Origin: Candidatus Krumholzibacteriota bacterium
GTDB taxonomy: Bacteria > Krumholzibacteriota > Krumholzibacteriia > JAJRXK01
Assembly: GCA_029262065.1 (NCBI GenBank)
Contig: JAJDAC010000023.1
Coordinates: 3,828 to 67,827 of the forward strand
DNA: 64,000 nucleotides
Direction: 5' to 3'
Notes under the pieces: generated by a model
Database searches by the model: none
Told to the model about the DNA's origin: nothing
Seen by the model: only the letters and a program-made list of their open reading frames with translations
In this document: piece after piece, positions 19,516 through 60,542 of the stretch
Numbering within the stretch: position 1 is the stretch's first letter
How the letters are laid out: the number at the start of each line of letters is the position of its first letter
Position numbers and translations under genes: made by a program

Positions 19516-21496
19516 ACGTATCGCCCATCTGGATCGCGTCCACCACGTCCATGCCGTGGGCAACCTTGCCGAAGATGGTGTAGCGCGCGTTCAGGTGAGG
19601 CTGCGGCGCGTGCGTGATGAACAGCTGGCAACCGCCCGTGTCCTTGCCCGAATGTGCAACTCCCACTACGCCGCGGTCGTACCGTTCGCGCGTCCACTCG
19701 CTGCGGATCGTGTAGCCCGGATCGCCCCATCCGGTACCCGTGGGATCGCCACCCTGGATCACGAAGTTCGGTACTACCCGATGGAACGTGACGTCGCGAA
19801 AAAATCCCGCTTCGGCCAGACGAGCGAAACTTTCCACCGTTTGTGGCGCTTCGCGCCCCAACAAGTCGATGTAGATGCGGCCACGTGACGTATCCAGCAC
19901 CAACTGCAGAGCGTTGCTCGCGGTAACAATCGCGGGCTGTTCTGGTGATCGTTCGACTTTGGTGAGGCGGGCCCGGATCTCGTCTTCATCGGCCAGGGCC
20001 GAGGCGTCGGCTTCGGGCAGAAGATTGAGCAGAGCGGTACGGGCAGCCAGGCGTAATCGCACGTCGCCGTTGCCCTCGAGAATTTTCTGCAACGGGACGA
20101 CGGCGGCCGGGACCTTCAAGATCCCCAGCGTGCTCACGACCTCCAGCCGCAGATCTCCGTGCGCGGTGGGGCGATTCAGCACGCTCAGCAACGCTTCGGC
20201 CGAGTCGGTGTCGTTCAACTGACCCAGGGCCTGGGCCGCAACCGTGGCCACGATCCAGTTGTCATCTTCGAGCAGATTGCGCAGGAGCGGTCGAGGAGCC
20301 TGCTCTTGGCAGTTGGCCAATCCTTCCACCGCCCGATGACGTATGGATTCGTGCCCTCGATCCTGGGCTGCTCTCACCAGGGTAGGTACGGCGGCGGGGT
20401 CGTCACTGTCGCCCAGGCGGGCTAACACGGTGCCCACGACCAGGAGGCTGGGATCGGTCAGGCCGGTTCGCAGGTTGCTGACGAGGGCGGCCGGTTCGGT
20501 GCAGCTGGCCAGCGCGTCGTACGCGGCCATGCGCACATCGACCACGGGGTCGGCGGTGTGCAGTCGGATGGATCCGGTGGCCTTTTCATCGCCGATGCGC
20601 CCCAGCGCTTGCAACGCGGCGGCGCGCACGTGGAACACCGAGTCTTGCGCGGCGGTGACGAGCGGGTCGATGGCGTTTTCGTTGCCCAGTCTTCCCAGGG
20701 CATCGGCGGCCATCACACGCAGTTGCCAGTCGGAATCGGCTTTCACCAGCGTCTGGGTCACGGTGTCGAGCGCCTCGGATGCCTCCAGGCGACCCAGGCT
20801 ACGCACCGCGTAACGCTTCACCAGGGAATCGGGGTGGCGGGTGAGTTCGCGCAGGCGCGGGACTGAACGGTCGGTCTCCGAGGGCAACTTTTCCATGGCA
20901 TAGGCGGCTCGCCACACCACGCTGGATTGATCGTCGTGCGTTGCTTCGAGCATGGCGTCGATGGAGGTGGAGTCGGCCAGCAGGGCCAGCGATTCGAGTG
21001 CCTGTTCGCGCACGTACGGGTGGTTGCGTTCCAACAGGGTCGACACCACCTGCGCGGTGCCGGCGGTAGTCGGCTGCAGACGCCCGAGGGCCAGGGCCAT
21101 CTCGCCCAGGGCACGGGGGTCGGTCTCATCGGGAAGCTGGCGAATGAGCGGACCACTTGCGCTTGGGTCGCCCAGGATGCCCAGGGCGAAAGCCACCTCG
21201 GCGCGGACCTCGGGGCGCTGGTCTTGCAACGCTCTTTCCAGCATCGGGCGGCCCTGGACGTCGCCGATGCGTCCCAGCGCGCGAGCCGCTTCCACCCGTA
21301 CCGCCGATCCGCCGTGGACCAGCAACAGGTTCAGGCTGTCGATCTCGGCCAGTCGGTGGTCTTCCCACTGCCGCACACGCAGGAGCTGCTCGTCGGTCCC
21401 CGGTTCGTAGCAGGCCGGTAGGACCACGACAGCCGCTATCACAACCAATACGCCAACCAGGGCAACCCATGTCGCCGATCCGTTGTACCTGACCAT
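19484..21496 (-). CDS. HEAT/PBS-lyase repeat protein fused to a C-terminal cyclophilin-type peptidyl-prolyl isomerase
   Basis: N-terminal TM helix or signal. At least 10 HEAT-like repeats (VRxxAARALGRIGD...). C-terminal ...FHRVVPNFVIQGGDPTGTGWGDPGYTIRSEW...GVVGVAHSGKDTGGCQLFIT matches the cyclophilin fold. Confidence 0.8.
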   Translation of the reverse strand: MVRYNGSATWVALVGVLVVIAAVVVLPACYEPGTDEQLLRVRQWEDHRLAEIDSLNLLLVHGGSAVRVEAARALGRIGDVQGRPMLERALQDQRPEVRAEVAFALGILGDPSASGPLIRQLPDETDPRALGEMALALGRLQPTTAGTAQVVSTLLERNHPYVREQALESLALLADSTSIDAMLEATHDDQSSVVWRAAYAMEKLPSETDRSVPRLRELTRHPDSLVKRYAVRSLGRLEASEALDTVTQTLVKADSDWQLRVMAADALGRLGNENAIDPLVTAAQDSVFHVRAAALQALGRIGDEKATGSIRLHTADPVVDVRMAAYDALASCTEPAALVSNLRTGLTDPSLLVVGTVLARLGDSDDPAAVPTLVRAAQDRGHESIRHRAVEGLANCQEQAPRPLLRNLLEDDNWIVATVAAQALGQLNDTDSAEALLSVLNRPTAHGDLRLEVVSTLGILKVPAAVVPLQKILEGNGDVRLRLAARTALLNLLPEADASALADEDEIRARLTKVERSPEQPAIVTASNALQLVLDTSRGRIYIDLLGREAPQTVESFARLAEAGFFRDVTFHRVVPNFVIQGGDPTGTGWGDPGYTIRSEWTRERYDRGVVGVAHSGKDTGGCQLFITHAPQPHLNARYTIFGKVAHGMDVVDAIQMGDTFSAEVRWANP

Positions 21497-21683: not shown

Positions 21684-22460
21684 GTGCCACCGTCCGTTGC
21701 TCGCATTGTCCTGGCCTACGATGGCACCGACTTCCATGGTTGGCAGATTCAGCCCAACCTGCGGACAGTCCAGGGGGAGCTGATCGCGGGGTTGAAACGC
21801 CTGATAGACGTCGTTTCGGTGCCTCCGGGTGCCGGTCGAACCGATGCGGGGGTGCACGCCTGGGGCCAGGTCAGCTCCGTGACTTTGGCGCATCCCGACG
21901 ATGTGATCCGGCTGACCCGTGCGTTGCCACACATGATGCCCGACGACATCGTGATCCGGTCGATTGTGTTGGAAACTTCCGACTTCCACGCGCGCCATAG
22001 CGCCTGCGGTCGCCACTATCGGTACCGCATGCTCACGCTGGCTGATCCATCGCGCCGTCGCAGCCATCTGAATGTGGGCGGGGGCCTGGATCTCGAGGCA
22101 ATGGTCGAGGCGGCGAGCAGTCTGGTGGGCGACCACGATTGCACCAGTCTGTGCCGCCGGGCGTCGCTCGAGCCCGGCCGAACTCGTTGCGTCATCCACA
22201 CCAGCCGGCTTACGGTGGACGGCGACGAGCTGGTGCTCGACATCGCGGCCGACCGCTTCCTGCATTCCATGGTGCGCACGATTGTGGGAACGCTTCTCGA
22301 TGTGGGTCAGGGGCGGCGGCGCTCCGACTGTTTTTCGTCCATCTTGTCGGCAATGGATCGAGGCGCGGCGGGCCCCACGGCGGCCCCCCATGGTCTGTAC
22401 CTGCATTCGGTGAAGTACGATTCTGAGTGCTCCGCTCCCCCGGAGGATCATGCGATATAG
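21684..22460 (+). CDS. truA: tRNA pseudouridine(38-40) synthase TruA
   Basis: RIVLAYDGTDFHGWQIQPNLRTVQGEL...GRTDAGVHAWGQV (catalytic Asp) ...FLHSMVRTIVGTL. Start placed at an in-frame GTG. Confidence 0.85.
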   Translation: MPPSVARIVLAYDGTDFHGWQIQPNLRTVQGELIAGLKRLIDVVSVPPGAGRTDAGVHAWGQVSSVTLAHPDDVIRLTRALPHMMPDDIVIRSIVLETSDFHARHSACGRHYRYRMLTLADPSRRRSHLNVGGGLDLEAMVEAASSLVGDHDCTSLCRRASLEPGRTRCVIHTSRLTVDGDELVLDIAADRFLHSMVRTIVGTLLDVGQGRRRSDCFSSILSAMDRGAAGPTAAPHGLYLHSVKYDSECSAPPEDHAI

Positions 22461-22470
22461 GAGACCAACC

Positions 22471-23115
22471 ATGCAGCTCTACCTGGAGAGTGCGGACCCC
22501 GACACGGTGCGCGAAGCCATGACCTGGAGCATTGTGGATGGGGTGGCCACATCGCCGCCGCTGCTGGCGCGAGCCGCCGGATCCTCTGAGGACCTGGTGA
22601 AAGAGCTCTGCGGCGTCGTAAATGGCCCGGTCTTCGTGGACGTAACATCGACTGACAGTGCGAACATGATCGAAGAGGCGCAGCTGTTGGCTAGCTTGGA
22701 CGACCGCGTCATCGTGCGCATTCCCTGCTCGAACACCGGCATTCCGGCCATCTCGGCGCTCGCCCAACAGCGTATTACGGTGGAGGCCGGATTGTGCTTC
22801 TCGCTTTCGCAGGCGTTGCTGGCCGCCAAGGCGGGGGCCAGGCTGGTTTCGCCCGCCGTGGGTGCCATGGATGCGGCCGGCGGAGACGGTCTCGCCCTGT
22901 TGGGCGCCATGATGACCATGCTCGATCAGTACGAAATGAAGGCCAGTGTGCACGCCGGCGGCCTGGAGCACCCGGGTCACGTGGCCGAAGCGGCCCGCAT
23001 GGGGGCCGACGGCGCCACGGTGTCGCTGGATCTGTTGGGGAAGCTGGCCGATCACCCCCTGACGCACGCGATGCGTGAGGGACAGCTGGACCAGTGGCGG
23101 CGAGCCCAGAATTAG
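22471..23115 (+). CDS. Transaldolase/fructose-6-phosphate aldolase family protein (TalC/FSA-like) with Arg at the expected Schiff-base Lys position
   Basis: MQLYLESADPDTV...GVATSPPLL...VIVRIPCSNTGIPAISAL...GLCFSLSQALLAAKAGARLVSPAVGAMD aligns to the TalC/FSA family. In the (V/I)K(I/V)P motif, codon 83 is CGC (Arg, nt 22717-22719). Confidence 0.8.
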   Translation: MQLYLESADPDTVREAMTWSIVDGVATSPPLLARAAGSSEDLVKELCGVVNGPVFVDVTSTDSANMIEEAQLLASLDDRVIVRIPCSNTGIPAISALAQQRITVEAGLCFSLSQALLAAKAGARLVSPAVGAMDAAGGDGLALLGAMMTMLDQYEMKASVHAGGLEHPGHVAEAARMGADGATVSLDLLGKLADHPLTHAMREGQLDQWRRAQN

Positions 23116-23152: not shown

Positions 23153-24355
23153 ATGATGTCCGACAACAACCGCCTACCCTATGTCGTGGGAGCTCTCATG
23201 GGCCTGGCCCTGGGAGTATCCGTGCTGCTGTATTTCAGCCTGACCCAGCGCGGTGGTGAGCTACCCGTGCAAACCGGCGAATCGACCACTGGTTCCACCG
23301 ATTGGACAGACGCCGGTCCCGGTTTCAGCCCATCCCAGGTGATTTCCGACCAACGCGGGAACGCCATCGTCGAGGCCACCCGACGGGTTTCGCCGGCGGT
23401 GGTCAGCATCAACTCGATTCGTTCAGGCGCCACTACCCGGGTCATGCCGTTGCTGGACCTGTACACGCGGTCTCCACCCCAGAATGTCGGCGTGGGCAGC
23501 GGTTTCATCGTCGACGATCGTGGCTACATCTTGACCAACGAACACGTGATTCGCGAAGGCGATCAAGTGGTGGTCACGCTCAACAACGGTGAGCACTACG
23601 CGGCCGACATCCTGGGGCGCAGTGCCAAGTTCGATCTGGCGGTCCTGAAGATCCGCGGCGAAGAGATTCACGGTCTACCCGTGGTCGAGCTGGGCGACAG
23701 CGACGACGTCCTGGTAGGCGAGTGGGCCATCGCGATCGGCTCGCCGTTTGGGTATCTGCTGGACGACAGCAGCCCCACGGTCACCGTGGGTGTGATCAGC
23801 GCGGTGGGTCGTGACCTCAAGATGAACCAACCCTTGTACCTGGACATGATCCAGACCGACGCGGCCATCAACCAGGGCAACAGCGGTGGTCCTCTCGTGA
23901 ACAGCTTGGGTCAGGTGGTTGGTATCAACGCGTTCATCCTGAGTGAGACCGGCGGCTCCGTCGGGGTGAGCTTTGCCATCCCCGCCAATCGCGGGCGATG
24001 GGTGCTCGAGGAGATCCTGAAGTACGGAAGAATTCGCGAGTTCTACGCGGGTATGACCGGGGCTTTCCTATCGCCCTACCAGCGTCAAGACCTGCCGGAC
24101 GATGTACCCGATGGCTGGGCGGTATCCAACGTCGTTACCGGCTCGCCGGCCCACGAGGCGGGTATTCGAACCGGCGATATCCTGCGCGTGATCAACGGCG
24201 AACCCATCGTCAACAACCGTGCGTTGGTTCGCCGGTTGTACGAGGCTCGCGTAGGCGCCGTGCTGGAGTTCGTGGTGTGGCGCCACGGAAAAGGCGAGTT
24301 CCCGGCCCGGTTGACCCTGGTGGAGAGTCCGACCGGACCGAGACTTCAGCCCTGA
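23153..24355 (+). CDS. HtrA/DegP family periplasmic serine protease (S1C) with PDZ domain
   Basis: N-terminal TM anchor. Trypsin-fold motifs TNEHVI, DLAVLKI and GNSGGPLVN. C-terminal PDZ (GWAVSNVVTGSPAHEAGIRTGDILRVINGEPI). Confidence 0.88.
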   Translation: MMSDNNRLPYVVGALMGLALGVSVLLYFSLTQRGGELPVQTGESTTGSTDWTDAGPGFSPSQVISDQRGNAIVEATRRVSPAVVSINSIRSGATTRVMPLLDLYTRSPPQNVGVGSGFIVDDRGYILTNEHVIREGDQVVVTLNNGEHYAADILGRSAKFDLAVLKIRGEEIHGLPVVELGDSDDVLVGEWAIAIGSPFGYLLDDSSPTVTVGVISAVGRDLKMNQPLYLDMIQTDAAINQGNSGGPLVNSLGQVVGINAFILSETGGSVGVSFAIPANRGRWVLEEILKYGRIREFYAGMTGAFLSPYQRQDLPDDVPDGWAVSNVVTGSPAHEAGIRTGDILRVINGEPIVNNRALVRRLYEARVGAVLEFVVWRHGKGEFPARLTLVESPTGPRLQP

Positions 24356-24373: not shown

Positions 24374-24895
24374 CTACTGAAACCGCGCCTTCAGTTCGCT
24401 CCAGCTTGCGCTTACCACGGGCACCGAACAGGCCGAGGGCCCCTGGATTCGCACACCCATGAAGGTGAAGTTGGCGCAGAAGTCCTCGAGTTCCAGGCAT
24501 TTTCCCGAGTAGGTAACGGTCTGTTGGCCCGAGCCGGACACCGTCGTGCCGCTGACGGTATAGGTTTGCGTCAGCTCGAAATCGGCGGTGCAGCCGGGGA
24601 AGATCGGTGTCTCGAGATCGCTGCATTCGATCTCAATGGTGTTGCCATTGATGACCGTCGTGCACTCGCTCTCGAATTCCTCGTCGGGAGTCTCGATGCA
24701 GTCGTTCGAGCAGATCGTGTCGGTGAAGGTGTTGCTGGTCAGGACCTCTTCCGTTTCGCATATCGTGACTTCGCTCGTGATTTCCCATTCTCCAAACCAC
24801 TGGGCTCCCACTTCTTCGTCGTTGGCGTGGGCGTGGGAAAGAGAGAGGCCGAGAACCAAGACGACCGTCGCGAGGGTTCGATTCCAAGATGTCAT
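24374..24895 (-). CDS. Small secreted acidic Cys-rich protein, a distant third member of the 10962/11679 family (shared C-terminal tail)
   Basis: Signal peptide (MTSWNRTLATVVLVLGLSLSHAHA). Thr/Glu/Cys-rich mature part. Ends ...CSVPVVSASWSELKARFQ. GC is about 57%, lower than the flanking DNA. The track ORF 24374..24973 was trimmed to the Met that precedes the signal peptide. Confidence 0.55.
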   Translation of the reverse strand: MTSWNRTLATVVLVLGLSLSHAHANDEEVGAQWFGEWEITSEVTICETEEVLTSNTFTDTICSNDCIETPDEEFESECTTVINGNTIEIECSDLETPIFPGCTADFELTQTYTVSGTTVSGSGQQTVTYSGKCLELEDFCANFTFMGVRIQGPSACSVPVVSASWSELKARFQ

Positions 24896-25018
24896 GCGTG
24901 GGCTCCGTTTCCAGTTGATGCCATATTCCCCCCAACGGGAATGATACCATGGATGTTGAGCCCATTTCCGCAACGCCGTGCTTGACCGCAGGCGCTCAGA
25001 CGTTAACTTTTCCCCGCC

Positions 25019-39846: not shown

Positions 39847-40003
39847 GTAGAAAACCGTGGTGGAGAGCGTGCTACCCTGGTTCCAGCGCGGCGCTGTGCT
39901 ATGATTGGTTGTCCCCGTTCGGATTGCATGGGCACGGAAGGCCTTCGTTGCCATCACTGGACGCGACCTCGAATCCATTTCCTTGCCTGGAGGCGTAGGT
40001 TTC

Positions 40004-41068
40004 ATGAGCGATAAGAAAGTCCTGGTGGTCGGGACGGGAACCATTGGCGAACCACTGATCGGTCTTCTGACGTCCTATAAGAAAGAACTCGGAATATCCG
40101 ATGTCTTCGTCCACAAACGGACCCCGCTATTGACCGATCGGTCGAAGGTGGTCGATCTGGTGAAGCGCGGCGCGAAGCTGGTCACCGACGAAGACCGCCA
40201 GCAGGCCTTCCGCGACATGGGGTTGAAACCGACGTTGGAAACCCACGAGGCGATTGACCAGGCGTCGGTGGTTATCGATTGCACGCCCGCGGGCAACAAG
40301 ATGAAGACCGACCTGTACAACCAGTACGCCAAGAACACTGATCTGTTCATCGCCCAGGGCAGCGAATTCGGGTTCGGCAAGATGTACGCGCGGGGCATCA
40401 ACGACAGTGCGCTGATCCACGGCGAAGACAAGTTCATCCACGTGGTGAGCTGCAACACCCACAACATTTCAGTCCTGATCGATGTCCTGGCGTTGGCCGA
40501 CGGAAAAGACAACCTGGCGCAGGGCCGGTTCGTCTGTATTCGCCGCGCCAATGACCTGAGTCAGGATACGAGCTTCCTGCCTTCACCTCAGGTCGGCAAG
40601 CATGGCGATCCCGACTTCGGTACGCATCACGCACGCGACTCGTACCACCTGTTCAAGACCCTGGGCCTCGAACTCGATCTGTTTTCGTCGGCGCTCAAGG
40701 TCAATACCCAGTACATGCACATCATCCATTTCCGGCTGCAGCTGAACCAGCCCACCACCATGGACACCGTGCTCGAGCGCATCGCCGCGTGCGACCGAAT
40801 CGCATCGACCTACAAGGACACCGCCAACTCGGTGTTCAGCTTCGGGCGCGATCATGGCTACTACGGTCGCATTCTGAACCAGACGGTCATCCCCGTCGAA
40901 ACGCTGACGCTGGCCGAGAACGGTACCGAAATCATCGGCTACTGTTTCACGCCGCAGGACGGCAACGCCATCCTGAGTTCGATTGCGGCCGCGAGCTGGG
41001 CCATGGACCCCGACGGCTACAAGAAGAAGATCCAGGCCCTGAAGCCATGGTTCTTCGACGAAGTCTAG
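40004..41068 (+). CDS. Archaeal-type (type II) glyceraldehyde-3-phosphate dehydrogenase homolog
   Basis: MSDKKVLVVGTGTIGEPL (Rossmann). VVIDCTPAGN. The catalytic-Cys motif VVSCNTHN corresponds to archaeal VVSCNTTGL. IRRANDLSQ...GDPDFGTHHARDS resembles archaeal VRRGADPAQ...SHHGPDV. Start placed at the internal Met. Confidence 0.7.
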   Translation: MSDKKVLVVGTGTIGEPLIGLLTSYKKELGISDVFVHKRTPLLTDRSKVVDLVKRGAKLVTDEDRQQAFRDMGLKPTLETHEAIDQASVVIDCTPAGNKMKTDLYNQYAKNTDLFIAQGSEFGFGKMYARGINDSALIHGEDKFIHVVSCNTHNISVLIDVLALADGKDNLAQGRFVCIRRANDLSQDTSFLPSPQVGKHGDPDFGTHHARDSYHLFKTLGLELDLFSSALKVNTQYMHIIHFRLQLNQPTTMDTVLERIAACDRIASTYKDTANSVFSFGRDHGYYGRILNQTVIPVETLTLAENGTEIIGYCFTPQDGNAILSSIAAASWAMDPDGYKKKIQALKPWFFDEV

Positions 41069-41081
41069 AACCGGGTTGTCG

Positions 41082-42575
41082 CTAGCTGGCGGTGTTCAGC
41101 GAGCGCAGCAGAGCGCGCGCTTCGATCAGGTCGGGATAGTCGAGGTCCGCGTGTCGCATGACTTCGAGATAACGCCGCACGCCGTCGCGTGCGGCGTCTT
41201 CGCGTCCAAGTACCGCCAGGGTTCGACTCAACAGGAGCAGGGCATCGGGTTGCGTGGGAATGTCAGCCAGGGTCCGGCTGGTGTGTTCGATGGCAGCTTC
41301 CATGTCACCGGCCTCGAAGCAGGCCAGCGCCAATTCGTTGCGATACTCGATGAGTTCGTGTGGTCCCAGGGCTGAATTCGCGATCGCCTTGCGCAACCGG
41401 CCAATCCCCGACTTGGGCTGACCACGTTGGCGTCCAAAGTGGCTTTGCAGCAGGGCCTTCGCCAGTGAAAGTTCCTCGGCCAGGGTTTGTATGTACGGAT
41501 TGCGATCGAGGAAATCGTTGGCCAGGTTGAGCGCGGTCTTGGCCGACTGGTCGGCCGCGGCGGGTTCATCCAGCTCCAGTTGGGCCCACGCCTTCATGAA
41601 GTGGAACGACAACCCGTAGTGCGGTTTACCGGGGTATTCGGCTTCCACTTCCGCAATGAAGGCGTCGCTGCCTTTGACCAGCTCCTGCCACTGTCTTGCG
41701 GCGGCCAGTACCTGAAGCTCGCGTACCTCGAAGCGACCCTTCCAACGCGGCATGCTTGCGACCATGTCACGCGTGGTGTCGAGCGTGCGCCGTGCCTGTG
41801 AAAGTTGTCCCGTGATGCATAGCACATCCACCAGTTGAAACGCGGAGGCGGCGAAGGTGGGGTCGGTTTCCAGCGCCTTGGAGTATTCCGCAATGGCTTC
41901 GTCGTAGCGGCCGGTCAGGCGGAAGGCGTCGCCCAGACTGTCGTGGGCATTGGGCAGGTCGGGTGCGAAGAACGAGTACCGTTTGAGGCTCGTGATGGCT
42001 TCGTCGTAGCGCCCCGCTTGCAGGTAGATGCTACCCAGGTGATCGTGCACATCCACGCGCTCGGGGTCGTTCTCGAGGATGCGTTCGTAGGCCAGCAACG
42101 CGGTATCGTAGTCGAGTGCGAGCGCGGCTTTCTGGCCGCGCATGCTCAGGGTGAACGGGTCGTCCGGATACTCGCGCACCAATTGGTCGAACACACTTTC
42201 CATGGTTTCGGACTCTTCGCGATGGGCGGCGTCCAGGAATTCTATTTGCAGACGTTCGCGGTTACTGACTTCCGCGCGGTGGGCCATGGCCTGGGCCAGA
42301 TAGCCTTCGAGTTCTTGAGTAGATCCTACCCCCACCATCCACAGCTGCAGGTACGCCATGGCGAAGCTGGGATCCAGCTCAATGGCCCGCTGGAAATGAA
42401 CGGCGGCTTGGTCAGCGCGCACGCGGCGGGCCTCGGCCAGTCCGTGTTCATACTGGGAGTAAGCGGCCGCCGATGAGGTTGTGACGTCGCGCTCGCCAGA
42501 TTTCCACACACTGAAGCCAACGCCAGCGGCCAGGACCACAACGAGACCAAGGGACAAGAAAAGGCGCGTGCGCAT
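41082..42575 (-). CDS. Membrane-anchored TPR-repeat protein (paralog 1)
   Basis: N-terminal TM helix. Multiple TPR-like repeats (AMAYLQLWMV, YDEAITSLKRYSFFAPDLPNAHDSLGDAFRLTGRYDEAIAEY). The protein aligns end to end with 43340..44836. Confidence 0.75.
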   Translation of the reverse strand: MRTRLFLSLGLVVVLAAGVGFSVWKSGERDVTTSSAAAYSQYEHGLAEARRVRADQAAVHFQRAIELDPSFAMAYLQLWMVGVGSTQELEGYLAQAMAHRAEVSNRERLQIEFLDAAHREESETMESVFDQLVREYPDDPFTLSMRGQKAALALDYDTALLAYERILENDPERVDVHDHLGSIYLQAGRYDEAITSLKRYSFFAPDLPNAHDSLGDAFRLTGRYDEAIAEYSKALETDPTFAASAFQLVDVLCITGQLSQARRTLDTTRDMVASMPRWKGRFEVRELQVLAAARQWQELVKGSDAFIAEVEAEYPGKPHYGLSFHFMKAWAQLELDEPAAADQSAKTALNLANDFLDRNPYIQTLAEELSLAKALLQSHFGRQRGQPKSGIGRLRKAIANSALGPHELIEYRNELALACFEAGDMEAAIEHTSRTLADIPTQPDALLLLSRTLAVLGREDAARDGVRRYLEVMRHADLDYPDLIEARALLRSLNTAS

Positions 42576-42697
42576 GATTTGTATTTTGCTGGTCGAGATA
42601 GGCAGTGTCCCGGATGCCCCGGGAAGATCGGGCGTGCGATCTAGGGGGTAGTACGTGCGGCGACCTCGGCAGGTTGCATCGGAAGATCGGCATTGGG

Positions 42698-43327
42698 TCA
42701 GGGGGAGCGCAGTGCCGCCCGCACGGGGGAAGCGTCCAACCCCTGCCAGCGCAGGGGCAGCGCCAGTAGCTCGTAAGCGCCCGGCTTGACGTGGCTCAGG
42801 GCCAGATTCTCCAAAATGGCCACGCGGGCCGAGGCCAGGATCTTGTGGGCTGGTAGTTCCTTGCTGTCCACAGGATCCATGGAAGGTGTGTCCAGGCCAA
42901 CCAGTTGGGCACCTCGGTCGCGGAGCGCTTGCGCCGCCTCCGGAGACAAGGCCACGAAAACCTTGGGGAATCCAACCGGATCGTCGGCGGGCTGGTCATG
43001 GGTGCGAATGAGCACCCGGGGTGTGGTCGCGAAGTCTACCGAGTCGAAGTGTTCGGGCCGGACCAGCCCCTCCCGGGGCCCGTCCAGAACCAGGCACGGC
43101 CCCCAGTAGCACTCCAGCGGGACCTCGGCGATCGAGGCGCCATCAGCCAGGAAATGCAAAGGGGCGTCGGCGTGGGTTCCCACATGCGGGCTCGCCGTGA
43201 CCGACGAGACATTGCAAGAGTCGCCGTGGTCCAGGCTCCACTTCCATTCGAAAGAGAACGGAGTATCCCCGGGCCACGCGCCGGCACGCGGGCTCACCGG
43301 TTGACTGATGTCGATGATCTTCGACAA
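42698..43327 (-). CDS. Cyclase family protein (arylformamidase/kynurenine formamidase-like)
   Basis: HVGTHADAPLHF metal-binding motif (HxGTHxDxPxH) of the PF04199 cyclase family. Confidence 0.8.
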   Translation of the reverse strand: MSKIIDISQPVSPRAGAWPGDTPFSFEWKWSLDHGDSCNVSSVTASPHVGTHADAPLHFLADGASIAEVPLECYWGPCLVLDGPREGLVRPEHFDSVDFATTPRVLIRTHDQPADDPVGFPKVFVALSPEAAQALRDRGAQLVGLDTPSMDPVDSKELPAHKILASARVAILENLALSHVKPGAYELLALPLRWQGLDASPVRAALRSP

Positions 43328-43339
43328 ACCAGGCCGCGC

Positions 43340-44836
43340 CTAGCTGGCGCTACTGAGCTTCTTGAGTAGACGACGCGCGTCGGCCACACCGGGGAAGTCT
43401 TTGTCGGCGCGTTTCATGACATCGAGGTACACGCCCAAATGGCTGAGAGCGTCCTCCGTGTTGCCAAGTTCGTTGTGGGCTTTGGCGGCCAGCAGGTTGG
43501 TGCGCGGGTGTCGCGTTATGACACGCAGGAGTTTTGCGCACTCATCGATCGCGTTCTGGAACTGACCGGCTTCGAAGTAGGTTAGTGCCAACTCGTATCG
43601 GTAGTCTTCCAACTGGTGGGGGCTCTTCGAACTTTCGTTCAAACGAGCGGCGAGCATCTCGATGCCCGTTTCAGGCGAGCCCGTGGCGCGCGCGAAGTGA
43701 CTGCGAAGCAAGGCCTCGGCCAAACCGAATTCCTGGCTGACCTGTGCCCGCTCGGGAAACGTCTTCTTGTAGCCGGCCGCGACTTCCTCGAGCACGTTGG
43801 CGGCCTGCGTGGCCGATTCCAGGTCTTCCTTTTCCAGGTACGCCCACGCCTGGCGGAAGTGAAACGGCACGGGGAAACGATCTTCCTTTTCCTCTGAGTT
43901 CTTGGCCTTTTCGAGGCATTCTCCGGAGTACTGGATGACTCCGTCCCAGTCTTCGGCGGCGGTCATGAGGCTCATACGAATGTTGTGGTACCAGTTCATC
44001 CAACCCCGTTCTTCGAGCATGGGCCGTCCGGCTTCGAGCGTTTCCGCGGCCTTGTCCAGTTGGCCAGTGGTGGCCAATACCACCGCGAGGTTCGCGGCCG
44101 ACCAGACGAACGAGGGGTCGATCTCGATGGCTGTGGCATATTCCTGCATGGCTTTTTCGTACTCGCCGGTAAACCGGTAGGCATCGCCCAGGCTGTCGTG
44201 GGGGTTGGCGAGGCCCGGCGCGAAGAAGTTGTACCGATTCAGGCTGGCGATGGCCTCGTCATAGTTGCCAACGTGCAGGTTCAGGTAGCCGAGTTGGTTG
44301 TGGATGTCTATCCGCTCGGGGTCTTTTTCCAGCACGCGCTCGTAGTAGCCCATGGCCGACTCGAAGTCGTTGTCCTCCCAGGCTCGCCGCGCGCGTTGCA
44401 TCAGCACATCATTGTCGTCGGGAAAGCGCTCGGCCAATTCCTCTTGCAGACGATCCAGCTCGTCCCAGTTTTCATCTCGGATGGCCACTCCCTGGGCGAT
44501 CATGAGCTGCTCGCGAGGAGACACCTCATCACTCAGGGTTACCGCGGTGTCCAGGTGTTGGTTGGCTTCGCTTTCGTCCATCCACTCGCGCAGCGTCCAC
44601 AGCCGGTAGTAGGCCATGGCGAACTCGGGGTCCAGGCGCGTCGCTTCCCGCAGCTTCTCGACCGCGCTGTCGTACCGGAATCGAAGTCGCTCGGCTTCGG
44701 CATCGCGCCAGGCGGCGTAGGCTTCGTCGGAGGCGGTGGTGACCGTCCGGGGCTCCTCGGAAAGAATCCGATAGCCTCCGTAGCCTATAGTGGCTACCAG
44801 TCCGAGGGCGACCAGGGTCAGGATGGGTCGGGTCAT
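43340..44836 (-). CDS. Membrane-anchored TPR-repeat protein (paralog 2)
   Basis: N-terminal TM helix and TPR repeats. Shares long motifs with paralog 1 (NRYNFFAPGLANPHDSLGDAYRFTGEYEKAMQEY; C-terminal ...LLKKLSSAS versus ...LLRSLNTAS). Confidence 0.75.
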   Translation of the reverse strand: MTRPILTLVALGLVATIGYGGYRILSEEPRTVTTASDEAYAAWRDAEAERLRFRYDSAVEKLREATRLDPEFAMAYYRLWTLREWMDESEANQHLDTAVTLSDEVSPREQLMIAQGVAIRDENWDELDRLQEELAERFPDDNDVLMQRARRAWEDNDFESAMGYYERVLEKDPERIDIHNQLGYLNLHVGNYDEAIASLNRYNFFAPGLANPHDSLGDAYRFTGEYEKAMQEYATAIEIDPSFVWSAANLAVVLATTGQLDKAAETLEAGRPMLEERGWMNWYHNIRMSLMTAAEDWDGVIQYSGECLEKAKNSEEKEDRFPVPFHFRQAWAYLEKEDLESATQAANVLEEVAAGYKKTFPERAQVSQEFGLAEALLRSHFARATGSPETGIEMLAARLNESSKSPHQLEDYRYELALTYFEAGQFQNAIDECAKLLRVITRHPRTNLLAAKAHNELGNTEDALSHLGVYLDVMKRADKDFPGVADARRLLKKLSSAS

Positions 44837-44955: not shown

Positions 44956-47514
44956 CTACGCCGTGTAACTGCCTGGGGTTTCGTTTGTTTCTGCAATCGA
45001 GGCGTCGTCCAAATCCAGCTCTGAGGCCAAGGCCCGGATCACGATGAGGGTGATATCGTCCCCGGTATTTTCGCTCCCGGCATGGCTGAACACCGCATCG
45101 CGGATCCCGCTGACGATTTCGCCGGCTGGTTCGCGCGCCAGCCGGTGGACGATCTCCTCCAGACCGCATTCGCCGAATTGTTCCTCGGCGTGATCCTCTG
45201 CCTCGGTGACGCCGTCGGTGAACAGCACCAATACTTCGCCGGGCGCCATATAGATCTCCGACTCGGGGTACTCCATGCCAGGAAAGGCTCCCAGCGGCGT
45301 GGCGCCAACTTCCAGCCATTCGCAGGTGCCGTCGGCGCGCCGAAGCAGGGGGGGGTTGTGCCCCGCGTTGCTGTACAGCAGGTATCGTCGTTCGATATTC
45401 AGGGAAGCCAGAAACAGCGTGGCGAAGCGCTCGGGGTCGGTGCTTTCGTAGAGCGAAGTGTTCACGGCCGTGAGAATCGTGCCCGGCTGCGAGTGGCTCG
45501 CGGCCAGCGCGCGGATCGACGCCTGAAGATTGCTCGCCAGCAGCGACGCGGGCATTCCCTTGCCCGACACGTCGCTGATCACGATTCCCATGTTTCCATC
45601 GAGCAACGAAACAAAGTCGTAGTAGTCGCCACTGACCTGCGAAGACGCCAGATTCAACGCGGCGATCTCGAACCCGAGCACCACTGGTACGCTGCTGGGT
45701 AGCATGCGCTGTTGGATGCCGCGTGCCATGGCCATTTCTTCTTCGAGCTGGCGACGGTCGAGCGCATCCTGGTACAGGCGCGTGTTGTCGATCTGAACCG
45801 CCATCTGCCCGGCGACCGTTTGCAACAGTTCAAGCTCGTCGCCCTCGTAGGCCGCTTCGCTGCGCTTGGGACCCAACCCCAACACCGCCACCAGTCGTTC
45901 ACCGGCGAACCCGGGGACCAGTACTTCCAGCCCGGCGTGCTCCAGCACGCGCATCTCGCGGCGGAGCCTGGGATATCGATCCAGTTGCGCGCGTCCCATG
46001 CTACCGCGGGCGAGTCGGGCCAACTCGCTGGCCAGGTAGTCGGTGGTCAATGGCGCCGACCGGCGTTTGATCATTTCGGTGATCATGGGCAAGGCGGTGT
46101 GCGTTTCTTCGTTCCGGATCACCAAGATGCCGTCGTTCACGGGCACGAAGGCAAATTCACTGGGATGCAGCAACGATGTGATGCGTTCGCGGATGAGATC
46201 GGTGAGCTGCTGCACCTCGATGGTCGAGGGAATGGCCTTGGCCAGATCGGCCAGCGCCTGCTGCAGGTCGTGTTTTTCGCGGAAGAACTGTCGCTCGAGG
46301 AATCCCTGGATACGTTCGCGCGCCGGCGCGAATGCCGCTGCGATGAGCAATGTGGCAATGATGGCCACGAGCTGGCTGGTTTGGCCTGAAAGGCGCAGTA
46401 CCGTGTTTCCCACCAGCACCACGATCACCAGGTATGTACCAACCGTGATACCGGTGAGCGTACCGTAGACGATCGACCGCCGGATAATGACTTCCAGCTC
46501 CATCAGGCGATACCGCGCAATGGAATAACCGAAACTCACCGGTACCAACACCATGGGAATGGCGCCGAACAACGCGAATTCTTCGCGGCCCAGCAATTTG
46601 CCCAGCGCGATGTTGAACACCAGGAACGGCAGGGTGCCCAGCACCGTACCGATCGTCAGGATCTTCACTCGTTGGCGTAGCGTGGGGTCGGGGCTGGTCA
46701 CGTAGGTGGTCACCAGGCTGGCAAGTCCCGCCGTGAAGTAGAATCCCAACGTCATCTGTTGGATGACGGTTACCTTCGCCAGCGTGGTGCCAAAGAACTG
46801 GTTGTACGTGAACTGCGCGTAATACAGCAGCGGCAGCGTGTACAGCAGGGGTATGGCCCAGCGGTAGTGTCGGCGGAACCAGTCGCGCGGCTGCGGAAAC
46901 ACCAGGAAGAAGTGCAGGAACAGCGGCGGCAGCATCAAGCTGGCCAGCGTTCCGAAGTTTCGCGTGAGAACGTCGCTCCAGTAGTAGAACACACTGCGTT
47001 CACTGGCCGAGACGAAGTAGATGAGAAAAAGCGTGCATAGCAGGAAGAACAAACGCGCTGGAATGGTGTGGGAGTTGTTCCAGAACACGTAGAGGCCGGC
47101 CGCGAAATAGATGAGGGCCAACCCACAATACACCAGGTAGGTGCGCAGGTTTGCAATGCGCGTGCTTTCGAGTCGGATGGTCGTGGTGTCGGTGGTATTG
47201 GCCAGGCGGTCGAACACCAGGTACTCGACTTCATCGCCCACATTCTTGCTTTGCAGCAGCTGGGCCGCGTGCCGCGGCGAGCGAATGGGCTGCTGGTCGA
47301 TGCCCTCGATGATGTCGCCCACCTGCAGACCGGCGCGTTCGGCGGCGCCGCCGGGCACGGTTCCCACCACGCGGATCTTGGATCCGCCCAACACCCACAC
47401 CGCGCCGTCGGTCGGACGCGAGCGTGTGGCGTCATAGGCGCTGAACGCACCGGCGACCACCGCCAACAGACCAAAGGCCAGCAGGACGTTTCGAGTGGTG
47501 AAGATCACCGGCAT
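44956..47514 (-). CDS. Membrane sensor phosphatase with a periplasmic PDZ domain, a polytopic TM region, a GAF domain and a PP2C/SpoIIE phosphatase domain
   Basis: Signal-anchor then PDZ (GLQVGDIIEGIDQQPIRS). About 8 TM helices. GAF-like segment. PPM-type phosphatase motifs (SGDYYDF, ISDVSGKGMPASL, LFTDGVTEA). Confidence 0.85.
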   Translation of the reverse strand: MPVIFTTRNVLLAFGLLAVVAGAFSAYDATRSRPTDGAVWVLGGSKIRVVGTVPGGAAERAGLQVGDIIEGIDQQPIRSPRHAAQLLQSKNVGDEVEYLVFDRLANTTDTTTIRLESTRIANLRTYLVYCGLALIYFAAGLYVFWNNSHTIPARLFFLLCTLFLIYFVSASERSVFYYWSDVLTRNFGTLASLMLPPLFLHFFLVFPQPRDWFRRHYRWAIPLLYTLPLLYYAQFTYNQFFGTTLAKVTVIQQMTLGFYFTAGLASLVTTYVTSPDPTLRQRVKILTIGTVLGTLPFLVFNIALGKLLGREEFALFGAIPMVLVPVSFGYSIARYRLMELEVIIRRSIVYGTLTGITVGTYLVIVVLVGNTVLRLSGQTSQLVAIIATLLIAAAFAPARERIQGFLERQFFREKHDLQQALADLAKAIPSTIEVQQLTDLIRERITSLLHPSEFAFVPVNDGILVIRNEETHTALPMITEMIKRRSAPLTTDYLASELARLARGSMGRAQLDRYPRLRREMRVLEHAGLEVLVPGFAGERLVAVLGLGPKRSEAAYEGDELELLQTVAGQMAVQIDNTRLYQDALDRRQLEEEMAMARGIQQRMLPSSVPVVLGFEIAALNLASSQVSGDYYDFVSLLDGNMGIVISDVSGKGMPASLLASNLQASIRALAASHSQPGTILTAVNTSLYESTDPERFATLFLASLNIERRYLLYSNAGHNPPLLRRADGTCEWLEVGATPLGAFPGMEYPESEIYMAPGEVLVLFTDGVTEAEDHAEEQFGECGLEEIVHRLAREPAGEIVSGIRDAVFSHAGSENTGDDITLIVIRALASELDLDDASIAETNETPGSYTA

Positions 47515-54197: not shown

Positions 54198-54803
54198 ATG
54201 AAGCTACGCCTTTTCTTTGCCTGCCTGTTCGGTTGGAGCTTCGCGCTGGGAATGGTGTTTCCTGGTTCGCTTGGCGCCCAGCGGGCGGTGGTGGAGGAAC
54301 CATGGCAGGGGTGGCACGGGCCCCCAGCCGACGGCGCATACGGTGTGCGCTTTGGGATGGATCGGTTCATGGTGGGTGAGATCCTGGTGTCCAAGGGACT
54401 CAAGGCGCGCGGATCGCGATCGGGCACGCAGCGTTACGCGGGCAAGATCGGCGGTCGTCCGGCCGAGCTTGTGGCCGAATTCCACGACGACGCCGCGGGA
54501 GGTCTGGGCGGACGCCTCATGCGCATTCAGATCAGATGGAAGGAATTGGGTGGCGGTGCCGGGCGTGCCCTGGCGTTGTTCCATTCTCACGCCGAACGTC
54601 TTGCCAAAAACTACGGAGCGCCGATGGTCGAACAGGACACCAACGCCAGCGAGCTCGAGACCGGTCGCGGCGTGGCCAAGCGGTTGTTCCGTGGCGTGGA
54701 GGCGCAGACCGTGTTGGAGTTGAAAGCGTCGCGCCCGCGTCGCTACGACCTGACCATTCTCATCGATTCACCGCAGATCCACCCGGATCTGGCGGGGCGC
54801 TGA
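54198..54803 (+). CDS. Hypothetical secreted protein
   Basis: Signal peptide (MKLRLFFACLFGWSFALGMVFPGSLGA). No recognisable domain. Confidence 0.5.
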   Translation: MKLRLFFACLFGWSFALGMVFPGSLGAQRAVVEEPWQGWHGPPADGAYGVRFGMDRFMVGEILVSKGLKARGSRSGTQRYAGKIGGRPAELVAEFHDDAAGGLGGRLMRIQIRWKELGGGAGRALALFHSHAERLAKNYGAPMVEQDTNASELETGRGVAKRLFRGVEAQTVLELKASRPRRYDLTILIDSPQIHPDLAGR

Positions 54804-60455: not shown

Positions 60456-60542
60456 TGGTGCCCGGGGCGAGACTCGAACTCGCACGTGATTTCTCGCACT
60501 ACGACCTGAACGTAGCGCGTCTGCCAATTCCGCCACCCGGGC
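60456..60542 (-). tRNA. tRNA-Leu (anticodon CAG), 87 nt with a long variable arm and encoded CCA
   Basis: Reverse complement reads GCCCGGGTGGCGGAATTGGCAGACGCGCTACGTTCAGGTCGTAGTGCGAGAAATCACGTGCGAGTTCGAGTCTCGCCCCGGGCACCA. The anticodon loop is TTCAGGT. It closely resembles bacterial tRNA-Leu. Confidence 0.85.

Follow-up and report, generated by a model that had tools for sequence, protein, structure and literature searches.

Class I aldolases and transaldolases depend on the epsilon-amine of a lysine, which forms a covalent imine, and arginine cannot take its place. Enzymes of the FSA/TalC type are decamers (dimers of pentamers) in which the C-terminal helix packs on the neighbouring subunit. 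In the transaldolase of T. acidophilum (TacTal), D6 is the catalytic aspartate, E60 the general acid/base and K86 the Schiff-base residue, and R135, S167 and R169 bind phosphate; a K86A variant of this enzyme is deposited in the PDB (3S1W) and was presumably made to abolish the Schiff base. Here we analyse a gene of Candidatus Krumholzibacteriota whose product, a TalC/FSA-family protein of 214 amino acids (aa) called P0001, carries an arginine at this position. The gene occupies 22471-23115 of the plus strand (ATG at 22471, stop codon TAG at 23113-23115) in a stretch of 64,000 nt of contig JAJDAC010000023.1 (assembly GCA_029262065.1), referred to as the window; coordinates are positions in this window, and residues are numbered as in TacTal unless given as window-protein numbers (Arg83 of the protein is position 86). 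The reading to which we incline, with modest confidence, is that a TalC ortholog turned into a pseudoenzyme incompetent for Schiff-base formation and was kept for a role other than that of a transaldolase. Our literature searches found no published account of a transaldolase-family protein devoid of this lysine or of a transaldolase pseudoenzyme, and nothing relevant on a Krumholzibacteriota transaldolase, on FSA K85R or on TacTal Lys86; the Lys-less branch of the TalC/FSA subfamily is apparently undescribed.

Family membership and active site of P0001

A sequence-only reading of the window had proposed that the protein is homologous to TalC/FSA class I aldolases over its whole length, and this proved correct. 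P0001 matches the Pfam family PF00923 (TAL_FSA) over residues 5-199 (E = 1.5e-31, 110.3 bits for a cutoff of 27), aligns gaplessly with the T. maritima transaldolase 1VPX over residues 1-211 (5e-46), aligns with TacTal 3S0C with a single 3-residue indel (7e-42), and matches E. coli FSA 1L6W at 3.4e-18. The AF2 model, built from an alignment of 104 sequences, has a mean predicted local distance difference test (pLDDT) score of 96.2 and consists of eight beta/alpha repeats followed by a C-terminal helix (residues 196-213). In Foldseek comparisons this model matched 3S0C with a template-modelling (TM) score of 0.93 and a root-mean-square deviation (rmsd) of 1.7 A, and TacTal, 1VPX and B. subtilis Tal were matched with TM 0.93, rmsd 1.5-1.8 A and 36-39% identity. 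Because the Pfam match, the full-length alignments and the barrel fold of the model agree, the assignment to the TAL/FSA family is secure.

The active site was mapped by aligning P0001 with TacTal, E. coli FSA and 120 homologs. The VIVRIP segment of P0001 aligns with VVKIP of TacTal, which places Arg83 (codon CGC, 22717-22719) at the Schiff-base lysine (K86 in TacTal, K85 in FSA, K132 in TalB). The replacement noticed in the sequence-only reading is therefore real, and no alignment puts a lysine at the catalytic position. The changes of TTNP to ATSP and of SPFVGR to SPAVGA had also been read correctly, and the degeneration is wider than was then listed. Eleven substitutions affect the site (D6E, T26A, N28S, E60D, K86R, N108E, T110G, F132A, R135A, S167G and R169E). 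Glu6 (codon GAG, 22486-22488) stands in place of the catalytic aspartate; ATSP (22546-22557) replaces the invariant TTNP, with T26A and N28S; Asp57 (22639-22641) takes the place of the general acid/base E60; Glu105-Ala-Gly107 (22783-22791) is found where canonical enzymes have N108-x-T110; in SPAVGA (22849-22866), F132 is changed to Ala and the phosphate-binding R135 is lost; and Gly164-Leu-Glu166 (22960-22968) replaces S167-I-R169, so that the second phosphate-binding site is lost with a reversal of charge. The C-terminal helix, encoded at 23053-23112 and corresponding to the canonical G204/F208/D211 region, ends in a clade-specific WRRAQN.

In the 67 canonical TalC sequences retrieved, positions 6, 26, 28, 60, 86, 108, 110, 132, 135 and 169 are invariably D, T, N, E, K, N, T, F, R and R, and S167 is mostly conserved; the deviation of P0001 is far beyond chance since all 67 are invariant at these ten positions. 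Among the residues that contact the sugar phosphate (N28, N108, S130, F/Y132, R135, S167 and R169), which read S, E, S, A, A, G and E in P0001, S130 alone is kept. The acid/base set is E6, D57 and G107, instead of D6, Glu/Gln60 and T110. The alignment revealed no alternative conserved lysine in the pocket: K120 and K157 are the only lysines invariant in the clade of Arg-type relatives described below. K120 is a helix residue conserved in all TalC proteins, and K157, the equivalent of TacTal K160, is predicted to lie at the bottom of the barrel, where a beta-strand has its N-terminal end. Judged from these residues, P0001 would be incapable of transaldolase or fructose-6-phosphate aldolase chemistry.

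An Arg-type clade at the transaldolase locus

A large protein search retrieved a discrete clade of 53 representatives, 50-65% identical to P0001, beyond which ordinary TalC proteins follow at 42% identity or less. Clade counts refer to representatives of 90%-identity clusters, 52 of which are full-length. The Lys-to-Arg change is shared by orthologs: 44 of the 52 full-length representatives carry R86 (R-type), and eight keep K86. All R-type proteins have Glu6, and R135 is gone in all but one (P0044). They were drawn from NCBI, JGI, ENA and Logan and are intact 214-aa open reading frames (ORFs) throughout; a protein identical to P0001 is present in an independent Logan assembly. One clade member is labelled Candidatus Krumholzibacteria. 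In a library of 1.8 billion sequences clustered at 50% identity, a single cluster, with P0121 as its representative, holds the whole clade, which on this basis can be regarded as a narrow, lineage-specific family. A scan of contigs from genome representatives with the clade alignment gave, among the matches listed, two clade members (L001 and L003) and one canonical enzyme (L046, see below), and a degenerate DNA pattern applied to metagenome contigs and filtered with tblastn added at least three new clade loci (L111, L117 and L139).

The eight Lys-keeping members (P0027, P0046-48 and P0050-53) are 50-58% identical to P0001. They retain K86, N28, T110, R135 and R169, and may still be catalysts. 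E60 is replaced by Ser or Ala in seven of them, the exception being P0027, and N108 by Asp or Glu in all eight, position 108 being Asp or Glu throughout the clade. They share R20, C89, D108, K160, R179, R193 and a C-terminal W-R-x-x-Q-N with the R-type proteins. With the NCBIfam equivalog model TIGR00875 (fsa_talC_mipB), whose cutoff is 245.95 bits, P0001 scored 186 bits, other R-type proteins 170-204 bits and Lys-keeping members 188-224 bits, all below the cutoff, compared with 301 and 326 bits for two canonical controls, the first being the L046 TalC.

The neighbourhood of the gene was compared in eight R-type loci encoding six distinct proteins (the window, or L081; L082; L084; L213/214; L215; L216/217) and in loci of the divergent Lys-keeping group (L086, L088 and L210, the last of which encodes the doubtful Arg singleton P0121). 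A near-universal order was observed: a divergently oriented HEAT-repeat/cyclophilin gene on the minus strand is followed by truA, then, after 10-30 nt, by the TAL-like gene, and finally by htrA. In the window, the position between truA and htrA that had been proposed from the sequence was verified by domain hits, PseudoU_synth_1 in the upstream gene (truA, tRNA pseudouridine synthase A, 21684-22460, plus strand, gene call transferred from L081) and Trypsin_2 and PDZ in the downstream gene (an HtrA/DegP-type serine protease, 23198-24355, plus strand). An AGGAG ribosome-binding site read from the sequence (22459-22463, plus strand) precedes the ATG by 7 nt and shares nucleotides with the stop codon of truA (TAG, 22458-22460), an arrangement that suggests co-transcription and translational coupling of the TAL-like gene with truA. 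A scan for promoters and terminators between truA, the TAL-like gene and htrA gave nothing above shuffle expectation. An SLT gene lies upstream in most loci, except in L216/L217. In the window, L086, L088, L213/214 and L215, purB-purL-purQ-purF come next to htrA or a few genes after it; pur genes were not seen within the sequenced stretch of L084 or of L216/217.

L082 is the sole exception to the presence of htrA. In this lineage (P0009; L082/L083, 10624-11268), a CYTH-domain gene takes the place of htrA and overlaps the 3' end of the Lys-less TAL gene by 22 nt. The divergent gene of the window (19484-21496, minus strand) encodes a protein of 670 aa in which HEAT repeats are fused to a cyclophilin-type peptidyl-prolyl isomerase (PPIase) at the C-terminus, and the HEAT-PPIase gene is kept at this truA-flanking position in every Krumholzibacteriota locus with upstream gene calls.

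The same arrangement surrounds a canonical enzyme. In the Krumholzibacteriota metagenome-assembled genome Zod_Metabat.1031 (Zodletone spring; locus L046), the order is truA-X-htrA-purB-purL, where X is a canonical TalC (10001-10648). This protein has the identical genomic position, comes from the same phylum and belongs to the same length class as P0001, to which it is 37% identical, but has every catalytic residue. Because a canonical TalC sits at the same truA-X-htrA locus, the canonical Krumholzibacteriota transaldolase has its positional ortholog in the window gene, which was changed in place and is not a spare duplicate, and the L046 TalC is the apparent ancestral state. There is no second TAL homolog and there are no pentose-phosphate genes within the window.

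Ratios of non-synonymous to synonymous substitutions (dN/dS, or omega) were calculated by the NG86 method. Pairs of R-type genes with 80-85% identity gave dN/dS values of 0.125-0.169 at dS 0.77-1.2, and a pair of Lys-keeping genes gave 0.17. Where contigs of separate samples encode an identical R-type protein, they differ by synonymous changes alone. When seven neighbouring genes were compared between L084 and L216, the TAL-like gene was the most conserved (omega 0.135, 85% aa identity), ahead of truA (0.208), htrA (0.279) and the fast-evolving gene for the HEAT-PPIase fusion (0.393). In conclusion, purifying selection on the TAL-like gene is at least as strong as that on truA and htrA.

In a neighbour-joining tree with 200 bootstraps, the whole clade was recovered at 100%, a basal Lys-keeping group at 98.5%, and the R crown together with P0039 at 73%. 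The Arg-type P0044 was sister to the Lys-type P0027 (bootstrap 99.5%, 83% identity over alignment columns), and it is because of this grouping that the K-to-R change is placed, on the tree, at least twice inside the clade. P0044 combines K86R with N28H and R169L, and still has R135. The Lys-keeping relatives use AAG and the R-type relatives CGC or CGG, codons that fit a path from AAG in Lys-keeping genes to CGG or CGC in the R crown. P0121 (L210, 10001-10645) was considered as an intermediate with Arg in an otherwise canonical pocket and was downgraded, as Lys is present in P0274 and P0276 of its own cluster. It has AGG instead of AAG in an otherwise fully Lys-type pocket, on a contig with many truncated genes (ATP-sulfurylase, purL region), and may reflect either an error in sequencing or a K-to-R polymorphism of very recent origin.

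The lysine is also absent outside the clade, in nine of 149 representatives (50%-identity clusters) among the 150 best matches; these include representatives with Arg at position 86 (P0161, P0229 and P0243), with Gly (P0136), with Asn (P0201 and P0211) and with Ser (P0227 and P0250). Four were tested (P0161, P0136, P0229 and P0243), and every one resembles canonical TalC more closely than it does the Krumholzibacteria clade; their origins are therefore independent. Forty members, from Thermoanaerobaculia and Holophagales (Acidobacteriota), make up the P0161 cluster, whose gene lies directly after gyrA, in the order dnaA-dnaN-recF-gyrB-gyrA-X-DUF507 (L211 and L212). P0161 has lost R135 and R169 and pairs R86 with D108, as does the Krumholzibacteria clade, but its genomic context differs; position 108 is Q in P0229 and N in P0243. 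PLP synthase (PLP, pyridoxal 5'-phosphate), formed of PdxS and PdxT, uses ribose-5-phosphate and glyceraldehyde-3-phosphate. In the window, pdxS and pdxT (SOR_SNZ and SNO; 9310-10263 and 10269-10841, plus strand) precede the Lys-less TAL gene by about 12 kb. A Lys-less TalC of Acidobacteriota (P0286) is likewise followed within 2 kb by a MocR-like GntR/aminotransferase gene and by pdxS/pdxT (L211, 12606-14113). The presence of pdxS/pdxT near two independent Lys-less TalC genes may be a coincidence.

Function of the altered barrel

The former pocket has both relaxed and fixed parts. Over 18 pocket positions, canonical TalC had a mean column entropy of 0.14 bits and R-type proteins one of 1.38 bits (permutation p < 1e-4), and the R-type positions 26, 135, 166, 169, 204 and 211 ranked in the top 3-8% of columns by variability (p < 1e-4 by permutation). 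Relaxation affects the outer pocket, that is, sugar-phosphate and lid positions (26, 28, 110, 132, 135, 166-169, 204, 208 and 211) that are invariant in canonical TalC. The inner pocket is fixed: E6, T27, R86 and S130 are invariant in the 44 R-type sequences, 42 of which have D108 and 38 of which have E60. P0001 itself is off the clade consensus at positions 60 (D), 108 (E) and 110 (G). Outside the pocket, the R-type invariants are R20, C89, an A-G-G-D-G-L loop, K160, R179, R193, R205, R213 and the C-terminal W-R-R-A-Q-N. The charge of the pocket is inverted relative to canonical TalC, R135 and R169 being lost and acidic residues gained, and the mean net charge of the C-terminal helix is +2.1 in R-type proteins compared with -0.9 in canonical TalC. 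Variants T30C/D211C and D211A, which concern the region of the C-terminal helix, were present among the PDB entries matched by Foldseek.

The P0001 family presents features expected of a pseudoenzyme, namely homology to an enzyme with essential residues substituted, conservation of these substitutions, and purifying selection. The phrase used in the sequence-only reading, a non-catalytic or re-purposed member, fits this evidence as a joint description, since the lysine and other invariant residues are lost while the gene is under purifying selection. If P0001 is a pseudoenzyme, the fixed E6, E60, R86 and D108 could form a buried salt-bridge cluster that fills and stabilizes the former active site, a proposal supported by the convergent appearance of the R86 and D108 pair in Acidobacteriota; the outer sugar-phosphate site would then be free to drift. 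The protein might be retained for a binding or scaffolding role that needs an intact barrel, probably in a TalC-like oligomer, where the Arg-rich C-terminal helix may dock onto the acidic pocket of a neighbouring subunit. The second function is probably older than the loss of catalysis, because Lys-keeping intermediates repeatedly gave rise to Arg forms.

Several points weigh against the pseudoenzyme interpretation. First, the inactivity of P0001 is deduced from residue identity, and both the plug of salt bridges and the docked lid helix are deductions as well. Second, six inner-pocket positions are conserved as in real enzymes, which fits a new small-ligand or metal site equally well. Third, synteny points to no interaction partner, as the gene arrangement is ancestral and already surrounded the canonical enzyme. 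Finally, purifying selection as strong as this (omega 0.135) is not quite what a protein with a purely structural role would be expected to show.

A re-purposed enzyme or ligand receptor is the leading alternative, at a clearly lower probability; its anionic inner pocket (E6, D/T28, E60 and D108 around R86) would accommodate a ligand that is cationic or coordinated to a metal. Any chemistry would not involve a Schiff base and could be, for example, a metal- and Arg-assisted enolate mechanism as in class II HpcH/HpaI-type TIM-barrel aldolases. The invariance or near invariance of the six inner positions, an enzyme-like omega, the inverted charge of the pocket and the convergence on R86 and D108 in the P0161 lineage would all be accounted for. 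However, the remaining pocket positions are among the most variable, which is unexpected for a defined substrate site, P0001 itself deviates from the clade at positions 60, 108 and 110, and no metabolic genes co-vary with a gene whose synteny is that of the canonical enzyme. The more specific proposal that a class I aldolase barrel was converted in situ to a catalyst or receptor of another mechanistic class, with K86R and N108D arising convergently in Acidobacteriota, appears unlikely to us. If it were true, the Arg-type TalC proteins would be an unrecognized functional family and not dead enzymes, and these Krumholzibacteria would run pentose-phosphate metabolism without any transaldolase.

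It is very improbable that P0001 still works as a transaldolase or fructose-6-phosphate aldolase, by means of another lysine or of an unprecedented arginine mechanism. The gene does occupy the locus of the canonical transaldolase of the phylum, is strongly conserved and has no other TAL homolog beside it in the window. Nevertheless, the only invariant lysines are K120, in a helix of all TalC proteins, and K157, probably at the bottom of the barrel; D6, N28, N108, T110, F132, R135, S167 and R169 are lost together with K86; the sugar-phosphate-binding positions are hypervariable; and the TIGR00875 score is 186 bits for a cutoff of 245.95. The probability that the sequence is an artefact of sequencing or assembly, or that the gene is a pseudogene in decay, is negligible: one related Arg sequence, P0121, may itself be an error (AGG codon, Lys in 90%-identity cluster mates, fragmented genes on its contig), but the P0001 protein recurs in an independent assembly, 44 distinct R-type representatives have intact ORFs, the CGC/CGG codons are two steps from AAG, and decay and artefact are excluded by purifying selection (dN/dS 0.13-0.17) and by the synonymous-only differences between samples.

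Whether as a pseudoenzyme or otherwise, the Lys-less proteins bear current database labels of enzymes, "transaldolase" or "transaldolase family protein" in the Krumholzibacteria clade and "fructose-6-phosphate aldolase" in NCBI for the acidobacterial analogue (P0161 cluster). Because of such annotations, metabolic reconstructions of Krumholzibacteria and of some Acidobacteriota probably credit these organisms with a pentose-phosphate step that the gene cannot perform. Should the genomes truly have no other transaldolase, an alternative non-oxidative pentose-phosphate route would be needed, for example one through sedoheptulose-1,7-bisphosphate. The series at one locus, from canonical to Lys-keeping divergent to Lys-less proteins, provides a good system for the study of the gain of a second function followed by the loss of catalysis. 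Pseudoenzymes in general are common; this case is set apart by an orthologous series within one locus, by a K-to-R change that recurred and by a selection stronger than that on housekeeping neighbours.

Other features of the window and comparison with known enzymes

Two tandem genes upstream in the window (10938-11579 and 11679-12320, plus strand) encode Cys-rich paralogs of 213 aa, 40% identical to each other (E = 3e-38), which end in SWSAVR(G/A)RF and have no Pfam match. A 199-aa ORF located after htrA (24374-24973, minus strand) ends in ASWSELKARFQ, similar to the C-terminus of the tandem paralogs. The three may belong to an uncharacterized secreted family, whose shared C-terminal motif is perhaps a sorting signal. 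On the minus strand, at 41082-44836, a putative cyclase (PF04199) is encoded between two TPR proteins of similar size (497 and 498 aa), and a PDZ-SpoIIE phosphatase is encoded beyond this group, at 44956-47514. Long ORFs with a coding-like GC content at third codon positions (356, 431, 242, 315, 503, 387 and 201 aa; 528-3748, 6448-9203, 39905-41068 and 54198-54803) had no Pfam match at E <= 1e-5. The sole tRNA gene in the window is a tRNA-Leu(CAG) (60456-60542, minus strand), and Rfam gave no family at gathering score anywhere in the 64 kb.

The closest described enzymes are those of TalC subfamily 5 (T. maritima TM0295, 1VPX; TacTal, 3S0C; B. subtilis Tal, 3R8R), which have about 214-223 aa and the same (beta/alpha)8 barrel with a C-terminal helix as P0001. 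The motifs DGV, GP, QALLAAKAG and HPL and the residue W212 are common to P0001 and this subfamily. Unlike these enzymes, P0001 has neither the Schiff-base lysine nor Asp6, N28, N108, T110, F132, S167 or either of the two phosphate-binding arginines, and G204, F208 and D211 of the lid helix are absent. E. coli FSA has the same subfamily fold, with TM scores of about 0.93-0.94 between the P0001 model and the FSA variants 7QXF and 4RXG. FSA retains K85, D6, N28, T109 and R134 and departs from transaldolases only at Q59, L107 and Y131; it therefore represents a variation within Schiff-base chemistry, in contrast with P0001, in which the Schiff-base lysine itself is lost.

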